Source: Alphaproteobacteria bacterium (lineage in GTDB: Bacteria > Pseudomonadota > Alphaproteobacteria > MPNO01 > UBA830). From it: a DNA stretch of 64,000 bases. Below the pieces are notes generated by a model. That model was not told the origin of the DNA and ran no database searches. It saw nothing but the letters and a program-made list of their open reading frames with translations. Shown one piece after another: positions 14,709 to 37,081 of this stretch (position 1 is its first letter; each line of letters starts with the position of its first letter). The stretch covers positions 2,912,001 through 2,976,000 of the forward strand of contig OZ219791.1 of assembly GCA_964291215.2 (NCBI GenBank). Reading direction: 5' to 3'. Made by a program: the position numbers and the translations under genes.

Positions 14709-14945
14709 AGAACCCCCTGCATCTGTTCAATTCGGAGCCGCGCATCCGCCGCGACCGGGCCGGCACCATATGCGATTTGCGTGACCCCGACTATAGCATC
14801 CGGCCTTTCCGACGGACACTGCTTGCCGGCGCCCGGGCAGCGGGCGGCGCAGTGAGCGTACGATCATTCCGCAAGCCGCACGTGTTATCGGCGACATCCT
14901 TGCGGGTAAGCGTTCGGCCACGCGGTGATTGTTGGTGATTTTCAC

Positions 14946-15800
14946 GCCTTGAAGGCGGCCTCGAAGTCCCCGGCGAGATGGGCCTTGACCAGCGCGGTGC
15001 GGATCGCGCGCGGGTCGTCGGCGAGCCCGATGCCGACGCCGGCCTCCTTGCGCGCCTCGGATTCGGGGTCCTTCGGCGGCGCCATGGGCGTCGAGATGAA
15101 CGGGCCGGCGGTGTGAACGCCATGACCGGCGGCAGGATCGACAGGGGTTCCGGCATCCGGGCCGTTGCCGGCGGCGCCGGCCTCCGCCTGCATGTCCTCG
15201 GGCTTCACCAGGCCCTGGATGACCTGCATCGCGCCGTCCTGGCCGATGGTGACGATGCAGCCGGCCATCGCGAAGTCCTCGCGCCGGAACACCGCGCGCG
15301 CCTCGACGGCGGCCTCGATCCCGTCGAGCCGGGCCTCGACGGCCTCCGCTTCGGCGGCCAGTTCCCCGGTCCACTCGTCGTTATCGAGATTGACGAGTTC
15401 GTCGTGGCGGGTCGTCAGCTTGTCGATCTCGGCCCGTTCCGCGTCGGTCGGCGTGCCGGGGCTCGATGCGCCCGCAGGAGGCGGTGTCGCTCCAGTCGAC
15501 CTCGACCATGGCCCACTTCCAGCGCGTCGCCAACTCGTCGGCGGCAGACTGGAGCTTCTCCGCCGCGAGCTTCTCCAGCAGCACCGGGTCCTCGAACCAG
15601 ATGCCGTGCTCGTATTCGTCGGCGAACAGGTCGCGCATGACCTGACCGCCCGCGGCCTCGTAGGCCTCGACCCCGACGAAGCGGGCCACGGCCGAGGCGC
15701 CCGGCACGCGCTCTTCGGTCAGCAGGCGCTTCACCTGCCAGGCCGACGGGCGGCCGGCCTGTCCGGAGAGTTGTTCCCATACCGTCATCTGGCGCGCGCG
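14946..15800 (-). pseudogene. ParB-family (ICE/plasmid-type) protein, internal fragment with frameshifts
   Basis: ARFVGVEAYEAAGGQVMRDLF...WFEDPVLLEKLAAEKL and AGCIVTIGQDG...QGLVKPED; truncated at the transposon left end. Confidence 0.75.
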
Positions 15801-16418
15801 GCCGGAAGTGGTCCGGCCGGCGCTGCTGCGGGCAGGGAGCGGCGGTCCGCCCCGCGTCACGGGGTCCGGATGCGCAGATGGCCAGCAGCGCCGGGGGCCG
15901 CCGGCAGACGAAGGCGCCGTGGAGGGTCGGGAAGCGGTGCGCCGCCGTCGGAGGTCAGGCGGCGATGCGCTCGCCCCAGGGCGCGGGTCGCCGCCACGGG
16001 CCGTCCCCGTGGTCGCACCACAGCACCGGGAACGGGGGCTCCGTCGACGGATAGCGGGAGCACTCCATGTCGGTGAAGTAGAGACACACGCCCGGCTGTA
16101 TCCCCTGTTCGTCGAGCCACTCGAAGCCCGGGCGGAAGTCCGTGCCGCCCCGGCCCCTGACGGCGATCTCTTCGGGGAGGTCGTCGGGCGCGTATTCCGC
16201 CGCGTCCTGCACCGCGGCGTCGACCTGGAGCACGACGACGCGCCCGGGCCGGATGTCTGCCGCCACCTCGCGCAGTTCGGCCCGGAACGCGGCCAGCGTC
16301 TCCGCCGGCAGCGAGCCCGAGGTGTCGATGATGACGGCGATGGTCTCCATGCCCTCGGAACGGATCGAGGGGAGATAGAGGCCGGAGTCGATGAAGCGCC
16401 GGTTGGGCAGGCTCCAGG

Positions 16419-18048
16419 GTAACTGCTCACCCCCTGGCTCCGGCTTGATGTCGGGGTAGAGTAACGAACGGGTTTTCGTGGAGATTTGACACTGCATGCC
16501 GATTCGCTTAGTGGTGGTCATCGAGAACGACGGGGACCGCCAGTGGGCTACTTTGGATCGAAGGCGACGAGCGGGCTGTGCCAGCTGCTTCCGGGGCTCC
16601 AGCCTCCGCATGATCTGTATGTGGAAACGCATCTCGGAGGCGGCGCGCCGATGAAGCGCAAGGCCGGGTGATGGCGACGGTCAACGCGGCGTCGCTGCGC
16701 GAGGAGTTCGAAGCGGCCAAGACCCGGATCGCGGCGCTGCGTGCGGCCGGCAAGGTGGCGGAAGAGGTCGATGCCGTGATCCGCGTCTTCGTCATCCTGC
16801 TCGACATCCTCATCGTCGTCCTTCTGGAGAAGACCACGCACGAGCCGGAACTCCGGTCTGCCGCCGTCACAGACGGACAAGGACGAGAGCGTGCCGGGAG
16901 CAACGGCCCGAAGCCGAACCGGCAGATGGGCGACAACCTGCGCAAGACCATCGTCGAGGAGACGGTCGCGGCCTGCGACGCCTGCGGCGCCGACATCGAC
17001 GGCGTCGACCCCGTCGATCGGGAGCGCCGCGTCCTCGACGACATCGTGTTCGAGATCGTCGAGCGCCGCGCCGAGATCAAGGAATGTCCGAAGTGCAAGG
17101 CCCGGACCAAGGGCCGGTTCCCCGACAACATCCCGTGCAGTACGGCATCGGCATTCAGGCCCTTGTCATCAACCTGCTGGTCGCCCAGATGCTGTCCCTG
17201 CGCCGTGCCGTCGCGTTCGTGCAGGCGATCTCCGGCATCAAGCTCTCCGAGGCCTCGGCTATGCTTTCACGATGCGTCATGGGAGGAGGCCGCCGTGGCG
17301 CACCTCCTGCAACGCCCGATGTCGACGATTTCGGATCAACAGTAAGTGGCTCCATGTCGTGGGACCCTGACGTGCAAGTTCCCGCACCGCAAGCGCGGCC
17401 GGGAGGCAAGAGATCGGCATCATCCCGTGCTACAAGGGCGTCCTGGTCCACGACTGCTGGGCCTCGTACATGGGCTATGACCAGTGTAGCCACCAGCTGT
17501 GCGGCAGCTACCTGCTGCGCGAACTGACCTTTGTCGTCGAGGCTACCGCTGGGCGCGACTGATGAAGAGCCTGCTCCGCGAGGTCTGCCACAAGGTCAAC
17601 AAGAGCGCATCCAAAACCCTGAACGACGCCGGGCCGTGCGCAAGCGCTACCGCACCATCCTCACGCAGGGCGCCAGGGAACTGCCCGATATCCCGCCGCC
17701 GCCGAAAGGAAAACGTGGACGCATAGCAAAGTCCGACGCGCACAACCTGCACGAACGTCTCGTGAAACACGAAAACCTGCGCTTCACAGACGACCCCAAC
17801 GTCAGCTTCACCAACAATGCCGGAGAACAGAAGATCAGGATGGCAAAGGTCAAGCTCAAGGTGTCCGGATGCTTCCGCACCATGCTCCACGCAAAAGCAT
17901 GGTGCCGGAGCTCAAGCTACCTCACCTCCATGGCCGCACTCGGCTACAACCCACTCGTCGCCACCCAGATCGCCCTCGACGGAAAAGCCGCAGACATCAT
18001 CAACGAGTACTACGACCAATCAGAACCCAACAAGGGGTGAGTAGATAC
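16419..18048 (+). mobile_element. IS66-family element (copy 1): degenerate transposase with methylase remnant
   Basis: IRs GTAACTGCTCACCCC and GGGGTGAGTAGATAC; 8-bp TSD GCTCCAGG at 16411-16418 and 18049-18056; transposase motifs CDACG...CPKC, VHDCW, FTNNAGEQKIRMAKVKLKVSGCFR spread over several frames. Confidence 0.92.
16543..16671 (+). pseudogene. Dam-like (D12 class) N6-adenine DNA methyltransferase, N-terminal remnant inside the IS
   Basis: VGYFGSKATSGLCQLLPGLQPPHDLYVETHLGGGAPMKRK resembles motif X/I (YxGxK...PxH...YxExFxGGG); stop overlaps the transposase ATG (TGATG). Confidence 0.7.
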
Positions 18049-35187: not shown

Positions 35188-35189
35188 CA

Positions 35190-36320
35190 TGGAGGAAGCG
35201 AATGGACCTGCGACACACTACGACGATCGGGACTGTTTTGGAACATCTGATCGCAAACGGAGCAACGGATCTGGGGCGGGTCTTTGGCCAGCTCTTCGAG
35301 CTTGCGATGCAAATCGAGCGCGAGCAGTACTTGAAAGCGGGCCACCGGACGCCGGAGCGATAGGGCTATGCCAACGGCTACAAGCGGATCGACACCCCCA
35401 CTGTTACCGTTCAAGTGCCAAAGACGGCCGGTCACGGGGACGACCCCCCCCCAGTCGCTTGAACGCGGCCAGCGATCTTCTCGCGCCGTAGCCGAGATGT
35501 ACATCAAGGGTGTTTCCACGCGGCAGGATGTAATGCGCGAGTTCGGGAGCCTGTCCTCTTCTCAGGTCAGCCGGGCCACCAGGTTACTCGACGAAGAACT
35601 CGCCGCGCAACCGGCCCCTTGGGCTGATGAAATACCTGATCCTGGATGCGCGCTACGAAAAAGCCCGCCATGACGGCGTTGTGCGCGATGTTGCAGTGCT
35701 CTCGGCCATCGGAATAGGGGCTGCAGGCACGTTCTGGGGCTCTCTGTGGCGCTCTCCGAGGCCGAGGTCCATTGGAGAGCCTTCCTGGAAAGCTTGCTAG
35801 CCCTGCATGGTACGACCTTCATCGTCTCGGATGACCATGCCGGGTTGAAAGCGGCACGACGCGCGGTGCTGGGCGCGGCGATGTGGCAGCGCTGCCAGTT
35901 CCACCTGGCGCAAAACGCCGTGCACCGAACAACGACATCAGGAAACGTATTGGAAAACAGCTCGGAGCCACGCCTCCTCACTCCAAACCGCCGAGGCTGA
36001 ACTGGGCGCCCTCGTGGCCAGCTATCGCGACAAGCATCCAGGCTTCCTGGCTGGAAAACAATGCGGGGCTCGCTGTCTTCACCTTGCCTGATGCTCACCG
36101 CAAGCGTATGCGAACCTCGAACGGCATCGAGCGACCGATCCAGCAAGAACTCAAGCGGCGCACCTCCAAAGTCAGGGTCTTTCCGAACCTCGCCTCGTTG
36201 GAGCGCCTCTCAACCGCGGTCCTCATCGACGAAAAATGGGAAACCGAAACCAAGGCATACATCAAATGGGAACAGCTCGATCAGCTTCACGACAATTTCC
36301 AGACATCAGGTTGCGTAATC
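35190..36320 (+). mobile_element. IS256-family element, degenerate
   Basis: GYANGYK, AEMYIKGVSTR, YLILDARYEK, SEAEVHWRAFL, VSDDHAGL, WQRCQFH, RTSNGIERPIQQELKRRT across frames. Confidence 0.9.
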
Positions 36321-36875
36321 CTTGCCGTCTCCATCGTTACAAGCGGCACCCGGCAAGGAAAGCTGTGGAACGAGTTCGTCGCCCGCTACCACTGCCTCGG
36401 CCACACAACCCTGGTCGGAGCCCGGATGCGCCACGCCATCCATGATCGCAACAGAGCGCCCGTCGCCATGCTCGGCTTCTCCACCGCCGCCTGGAAAATC
36501 GCCCCGCGTGACACCTTCATCGGATGGATACCCGAGCAGCGGCAGAAGAACCTGCCGCTGGTGGTCGATAATCCGCGCTTTTTGATCATGTCCTGGCTTT
36601 CCGTCGCCAACCTTGGGTCCCACATCCTCGCCATCATGCGACGCCGACTGTCCGATGACTGGACCAGACGCTACAACACCACCCCAGTCCTCATCGAAAC
36701 CTTCGTCCAGACACTGCGCTATACCGGAACCGTCTACAAGGCGTCAGGATGGATCCATGTCGGCACCACCAAAGAACGCGGACGCTACGATACGCACGAG
36801 AAATACGACAAGCCAAAAAAGGACATCTGGCTGAGGCCTCTCCGCAAGGACTGGAAACGCATCCTCAACCGGTGA
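36321..36875 (+). pseudogene. DUF4338 domain protein (copy 2), 5' end removed by IS256; stop codon lies in the transposon right IR
   Basis: LWNEFVARYHCLG...AAWKIAPRDTFIGW...ETFV...YTGTVYKASGW...PKKDIWLRPLRKDWKRILNR*. Confidence 0.85.
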
Positions 36876-37081
36876 ATATCACCAACAATCACCGCGTGAC
36901 CGAACGCTTGCCCTTGCGGTTGCTGCGGGCCCGCCAGACACTAACATGTTGACGGCAATGCCGGTCCTGTCGAGGCCCTTCGCCCAGCTCGCCGAGCATG
37001 CCTCCAGCGCTGCCTAGACTGACCTCGCGACAGCAGCCTATGATATGGCCGTTCGCACGCAAAGACACGGAGGATCGGGCC

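Follow-up and report, generated by a model that had tools for sequence, protein, structure and literature searches.

How did a 22-kb block of surface-protein genes and mobile-element debris come to lie inside one exact 8-bp duplication? The question is raised by a stretch of 64,000 nucleotides, the window, from an alphaproteobacterial genome (contig OZ219791.1, positions 2,912,001 to 2,976,000, assembly GCA_964291215.2). The source genome, G000, comprises 6.15 Mb in two contigs (C1, C2) and is crowded with insertion sequences (IS). The unit in question measures 22,006 bp and, with the duplication on both sides, occupies window positions 14898-36919. A first-pass annotation had read it as a composite or non-autonomous IS66-derived transposon. 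The analysis below favors the composite origin: with a probability of about 70%, the unit is a decayed composite transposon of two inverted copies of an IS66 element that also carries the gene druA (IS66-druA).

Ends, target duplication and target site

The terminal inverted repeats, 14906-14945 and the reverse complement of 36872-36911, are identical at 37 of 40 positions, and the octamer CCTTGCGG stands at 14898-14905 and again at 36912-36919, an exact 8-bp target duplication. Likeness between the two ends is gone by about base 47. The first-pass annotation had described these repeats and the flanking 8-mer correctly, and it was right in three further respects. The stop codon of a DUF4338 gene, now druA (PF14236), falls inside the right terminal repeat. 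Both ends score as the same right (druA-side) end, set in inverted orientation, and only stubs of them are left. No intact transposase lies inside, where those of IS66 and IS256 survive as broken pieces; a tblastn search with the cognate TnpC gave no match in the window. A GTA start is a signature of the IS66 family, and the expectation of IS66-type ends with an 8-bp duplication held, except that the right end begins with GCA, not GTA.

The octamer occurs 447 times on the forward strand of G000, or 7e-5 per site, and among 584 catalogued IS66-type ends of this genome it adjoins only two, the ends of the unit. When catalogued ends were paired by family, distance and exact 8-bp flank, a common flank was found for 112 of 203 same-family pairs no more than 3.5 kb apart, for 24 of 47,014 distant same-family pairs (many at repeated targets), and for none of 30,133 distant cross-family pairs. 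Reads had been expected to span the junctions. The read check covers the left junction only, which a contig from run X3 crosses by 40 bases; X3 is a different strain, whose flank shows 25 differences over 1,946 bp (about 1.3%). Run X1 spans the same junction by only 28 bases, under the 31-base rule, and a loose end in run X2 beside an end of the unit's family had no counterpart in G000.

The insertion had been placed in a short intergenic region between an epimerase gene and a cupin gene. Comparison with the sister species G001 (about 90% identical) instead identifies the target as a decayed short-chain dehydrogenase gene: in G001 the epimerase, an intact 290-aa short-chain dehydrogenase and the cupin lie in a row with no cargo, while in G000 the dehydrogenase gene persists as 99 bp next to the right duplication. 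Cargo-free linkage of epimerase and cupin in a relative was thus found as anticipated, though not across a single CCTTGCGG, since the octamer is not conserved in G001. Four other genomes of the genus were compared at the target, G001, G002, G003 and G004; the epimerase-cupin distance is 1.1 kb in G003, and G004 is without the cupin at its epimerase locus. A 24-mer from the right flank had one match in JGI metagenomes, otherwise unlike the window and taken as chance.

Origin of the ends and rival histories

An end-motif scan of GTDB genomes returned 30 stretches, mostly from G042 (OZ219747.1), a metagenome-assembled genome of Alphaproteobacteria outside the family of G000. Intact relatives consist of a left end, one IS66 transposase gene (tnpC), druA and a right end, with 8-bp duplications; open reading frame (ORF) calls, made with no profile search for tnpA or tnpB, the helper genes of the classical IS66 group, show tnpC and druA only. 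The two G042 copies tested encode NF033517 IS66 transposases at 269-272 bits (cut-off 180). The first-pass annotation had proposed looking for such an intact cognate transposase: G042 has one, but in G000 only broken remnants were found, 68-79% identical and none in the window, and the intact IS66 transposases of G000 belong to other families.

The left end of the unit matches the common G042 right-end variant at 39 of 40 positions and that family's left end at 27, whereas the right end matches another G042 right-end variant at 40 of 40 and that family's left end at 25. Among 22 exact motif matches in G042, 19 carry the variant seen at the unit's left end and two the variant at its right end, and two of the three differences between the unit's ends are alleles already present in G042. 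End pairing across 834 kb of this genome gave 20 duplication pairs, 19 of them left-right and one a miniature. All 19 non-miniature elements have a distinct left end and a right end, with no twin right ends, so the parent family is not twin-ended. Judged by these matches, the two ends of the unit look inherited from two different elements, and the composite reading is favored because the ends equal different right-end variants while the normal left end is so unlike them. Also in its favor are the uniqueness of the duplication, the collinear flanks of G001 with nothing between them, a cargo that brings no integrase, and the occurrence in G042 of part of this cargo between outward-facing ends of the subgroup.

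Under the composite reading, an adhesin-bearing stretch of integrative element would have acquired an IS66-family copy on each side, the two inverted and each with tnpC and druA, at a donor site that may have been in a different cell. The transposase would have excised the whole block at the druA-side ends that faced outward and pasted it in a single jump into the decaying dehydrogenase gene, duplicating CCTTGCGG. Later deletions would have left no more than 40-47 bp of the left copy and would have taken tnpC and the 5' portion of druA out of the right copy, the second of these likely by recombination between two high-copy IS66 elements of the same direction. Nested insertions would have followed, and blocks of cargo may have kept exchanging with other loci. 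Because no intact cognate transposase was found in G000, the block is immobile by itself now, and the unit looks dead.

Twin druA-side ends alone are not proof of two IS copies, because single twin-ended elements exist in G001 and G002. In the autonomous IS66-druA elements of these genomes, the right end together with the druA tail is repeated in inverted orientation at the left tip; in that of G002 (L058-L062, L098-L100) a 164-bp inverted right-end copy lies outside the old left end. The twin-ended G002 element has exact 8-bp duplications in all eight distinct copies fetched, which shows that right-right end pairs can transpose in this subgroup. Two G002 units travel with passengers and no transposase inside a duplication, one twin-ended (2,573 bp, with an AAA/PD-(D/E)XK gene) and a second of 1,479 bp. 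Right-right transposition is what the composite model requires, yet it also allows the unit to have begun as a single IS.

That possibility is the substance of the main rival, in which one small IS66-druA element, twin-ended or with a left tip converted later, made the duplication, the cargo arrived inside it afterwards, deletions erased the ends of whatever carried the cargo, and IS66 never moved 22 kb. Besides the twin-ended elements of G001 and G002, this history can draw on elements in G042 that grew by nesting to 8 kb and kept short right-end stubs, on the richness of G000 in deletions, and on the fact that all seven mid-size duplication pairs examined in G000 proved to be nested IS with 0-2% unique DNA. 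We nevertheless consider it rather unlikely: all 19 paired copies of the best-matching end family have a left end unlike the right, both ends of the unit equal existing and different right-end variants, and an unseen carrier would have had to insert inside the IS and then lose both its ends together with about 16 kb of integrative-element left arm. Very improbable, by comparison, is that two ends inserted independently beside the same octamer or that the assembly was misjoined across repeats. G000 does hold hundreds of IS66 ends, two pairs of another family 52 and 62 kb apart share an octamer yet are no cargo units, and reads bear on one junction; against this stand the rarity of the octamer, which flanks no other end, the collinearity of the flanks with G001, and the left junction carried by a different strain.

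Pairing ends by duplication had been suggested as a way to list other cargo units. It gave 14 pairs longer than 3.5 kb in G000, the unit included, and none of the nine examined among the other 13 was accepted: seven consist of nested IS, and the 52- and 62-kb pairs have core genes between them and terminate in a complete IS that has a duplication of its own.

A number of observations weigh against a composite origin. The unit is present in single copy in G000, and neither flanking IS is whole. A base-exact empty allele was not found, the agreement with G001 being one of gene order only, and we infer the movement of the block as one unit. The 60-bp left flank aligned to the G001 dehydrogenase gene no better than shuffles did (1,677 of 2,000 scored as high), and its assignment as the 3' part of that gene was dropped. 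G000 showed no donor scar, the mark of which would be a 3' part of parB broken off at the point where the unit's copy is cut. Of four candidate right-end pairs in the G042 DNA sampled, none shares a duplication, and the block of cargo genes that G042 has in common with the unit is without matching flanks. The left end of the unit and the left end of its family share their first 14 bases, so that a converted left tip would look alike, and a twin-ended single element in G001 (L063:3683-7027) has ends identical over 81 bp. Finally, four duplication-flanked G042 elements of 4.9-8.2 kb have been enlarged by nested insertion (the nested elements being named from translations), and two of these leave right-end stubs of 57-66 bp, so growth by steps does occur.

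Two side observations concern the same subgroup. Seven 125-bp miniatures with the left and right ends of the unit's family are present in G000 (C2:689186, 1344817, 1354983, 1513852, 1861932, 2032622 and 2232999), and so this end family once moved transposase-free units there. In G042, many cognate IS66 copies carry a 1.9-kb insert in tnpC (L114:10001-14143) with an ORF that is reverse transcriptase-like in translation, likely a group II intron.

Cargo and its distribution

The features of the unit are collected in Table 1. The first-pass annotation had pictured a surface-protein cassette. The cargo is less tidy, with 9.8 kb of surface-protein genes, 4.5 kb of truncated integrative-element backbone and 5.9 kb of nested IS DNA in four pieces.

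Table 1. Features of the 22-kb unit and its target, in window coordinates
Feature	Position	Strand	Evidence
Left target duplication, CCTTGCGG	14898..14905	.	exact copy
Left end, 40-47-bp stub of druA-side (right) end, IS66-druA family	14906..14952	-	matches to G042 ends (see text)
Truncated, broken backbone of multi-copy integrative element	14951..21081	-	parB-like, VWA/DUF2201, DUF2201_N, unnamed gene, AAA ATPase
Nested broken high-copy IS66, first copy	16419..18048	+	own duplication GCTCCAGG
FN3-repeat autotransporter, intact, 1,939 aa, likely adhesin	21241..27060	+	Pfam fn3; C-terminal part resembles Autotransporter clusters, score 0.96
RTX calcium-binding repeat protein, intact, 736 aa	27230..29440	+	DNA identity to G042 gene (see text)
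Predicted zinc metalloprotease, intact, 579 aa, TbpB/Slam-type C-terminal barrel	29546..31285	+	DNA identity to G042 (see text)
3' remnant of another autotransporter-like gene, cut by next element	31181..32025	-	89.6% to C1:1320860-1321694; autotransporter label from reading translation
Nested, internally deleted IS66-druA of different end family (GTATCC ends)	32025..33559	+	without matching flanks
Second high-copy IS66 copy, same orientation as first	33571..35187	+	mismatched flanks
IS256-family fragment abutting druA	35188..36320	+	about 90-115 BLAST matches genome-wide
Right end, druA (PF14236) 3' part and druA-side terminal repeat (36872-36911)	36320..36911	+	93% over 592 bp to G042 element; end match in text
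Right target duplication, CCTTGCGG	36912..36919	.	exact copy
Short-chain dehydrogenase gene remnant that held target	36917..37015	-	81% over 99 bp to intact 290-aa adh_short gene of G001

The adhesin and protease roles are predictions. In the 579-aa protein, H289, E290, H293 and H357 are invariant across the 27 aligned homologs (27 of 37 matches taken), which includes an HExxH motif; TbpB_B_D occurs in 26 of these 27, matches to metzincins are weak, and the ESM Atlas returned one unnamed match at 0.79. The RTX protein was rejected as a member of a toxin or protease family, its scores falling far under the family cut-offs. An adhesin, an RTX protein and a metalloprotease had been thought to move as one unit. 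Three intact genes for these do lie inside the duplication, and their joint movement is probable; the adhesin and RTX genes also occur elsewhere in G000 without the unit's ends. Long matches to the adhesin are found at about eight further loci and near-identical copies of the RTX gene at three, several of them beside other IS types. The unit is therefore one carrier among several. Four other adhesin loci (C1:1115440, C2:1891071, C2:927166 and C2:1334589) have in common an upstream junction with a different multi-copy IS, which suggests a second carrier.

The parB-like gene of the backbone is cut at 14951, its join to the left end being ambiguous across 14946-14952, and has lost 744 bp internally. 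In all three other full copies of the integrative element in G000, parB runs on past this point, and beyond it lie genes for HATPase, RadC, strawberry-notch, toprim and YAcAr. Copy B of the element spans about 37 kb (C1:794.5-831.4 kb) and has an integrase remnant beyond the adhesin, outside the shared part. The cargo of the unit has no integrase and neither end of the integrative element. Its blocks match different G000 loci at 90-99.7%, which suggests that they are still exchanged with other loci.

Among the nested IS pieces, the mismatched flanks of the second high-copy IS66 likely mark a deletion junction; this copy abuts the IS256 fragment inside druA, likely the scar of the deletion that removed tnpC. 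The cargo did not come in through a crossover of the first and second high-copy elements, since the first keeps its own duplication. The high-copy family has about 180-200 BLAST matches in G000, and its copies decay through short deletions that peak at 5-7 nt (80 copies gave 108 distinct gap events, 55 of them in this range). Gaps in the cargo backbone also peak at 6 nt, while the flanking core DNA, aligned to G001, shows few; contigs of runs X1-X3 likewise have 5-6-nt indels, possibly assembly errors. The window interval 60544-62302 holds a third, partial copy and, after it, an element whose inverted repeats are 97 bp long (60906-61002 and 62206-62302). Elsewhere in G000, GATATTTG adjoins three high-copy IS66 ends in a 52-kb stretch of core genes whose flanks are unique (C2:1368912-1420574).

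Part of the cargo recurs outside the genus. The RTX-protease pair is found in G042 in the same order, 89% identical over 4,130 bp, between outward-facing ends of the IS66-druA subgroup. We did not accept this G042 block as a proven transposon, since its flanks differ and the left one is other mobile DNA. Eight core genes of G042 and G000 are 65-73% identical at the DNA level, the RTX gene 93% and the protease gene 88%. On this contrast in identity, the ends and part of the cargo are likely common to the distantly related G042 by horizontal transfer. Searched with the G000 protease, G001, G002, G043 and G044 gave no match, leaving the gene in one of five genomes. G043 and G044 have the adhesin and RTX genes, and G044 the backbone too, at 86-98% in long matches.

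The target region offers an observation of its own. In G002 the epimerase-cupin interval (G002:C1:4965060-4996319, L031-L032) holds a 10,420-aa adhesin ORF unrelated to the unit; a scan of its C-terminal 4,957 aa found Calx-beta and LapA domains. This insertion has no convincing terminal repeats and no match to the unit's ends. The epimerase-cupin interval is possibly a hotspot.

Comparison with known elements

That pairs of IS can move the DNA between them is a textbook principle. The compound (composite) transposon is defined in TnCentral (10.1101/2021.05.26.445724), and Tn6097 of Paracoccus is a compound transposon of 17.8 kb with two copies of ISPfe2 (PMC3281130). The unit resembles such transposons in its two IS-derived ends, passenger DNA of similar size, a duplication on the outside and genes truncated at either edge of the core. 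It differs from Tn6097 in belonging to the IS66 family, in having as outer ends the right ends of two variants, in retaining no transposase, in flanking copies cut to 47 bp and 592 bp, and in passengers that are surface proteins and integrative-element debris. An 8-bp duplication is listed for ISPpa5a and ISPpa7 in PMC3281130. The unit shares its 8-bp duplication and GTAAGCG-type ends with single-transposase (ISBst12-like) forms of IS66, and the cognate G042 elements encode NF033517 transposases; unlike those forms it measures 22 kb rather than 2.3-4.1 kb and is without a left end or tnpC.

In transporter IS (tIS) the transposase is retained, with one left and one right end around it, and a mobile insertion cassette (MIC) derives from one IS. 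Transporter IS are reported for the IS1595 and IS66 families (TnCentral, 10.1101/2021.05.26.445724), and MICs are defined in PMC3281130. The unit has IS ends around passenger genes, like both, and no transposase, like a MIC, while both its ends are right ends and its load is several times larger. The left part of its cargo is a piece of an alphaproteobacterial integrative element (ParB, RadC, strawberry-notch helicase/methylase, toprim, YAcAr, tyrosine integrase), from which it differs in lacking an integrase and both element ends and in being bounded by IS66 ends. The unit is not a tIS, not a MIC and not an integrative and conjugative or mobilizable element (ICE/IME). No description of a large IS66 composite transposon from two right ends, or of IS66 with druA, was found in the open literature, most subscription journals lying outside the scope of the search.

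A broader picture is offered tentatively, as something we would not yet expect to hold: IS66-druA transposases may readily pair right ends, so that inverted copies or stubs mobilize the DNA between them and shuttle adhesin, RTX and protease genes among distant alphaproteobacteria, with the epimerase-cupin interval a recurrent landing site for adhesins in this genus. The unit itself, resolved to the base, is a candidate large IS66 composite transposon of two right ends. It ties an uncatalogued IS66 subgroup to the movement of surface-protein genes among bacteria so divergent that their core genes are only 65-73% identical, and it makes the choice of ends, right-right versus left-right, directly testable in a poorly studied transposase family.

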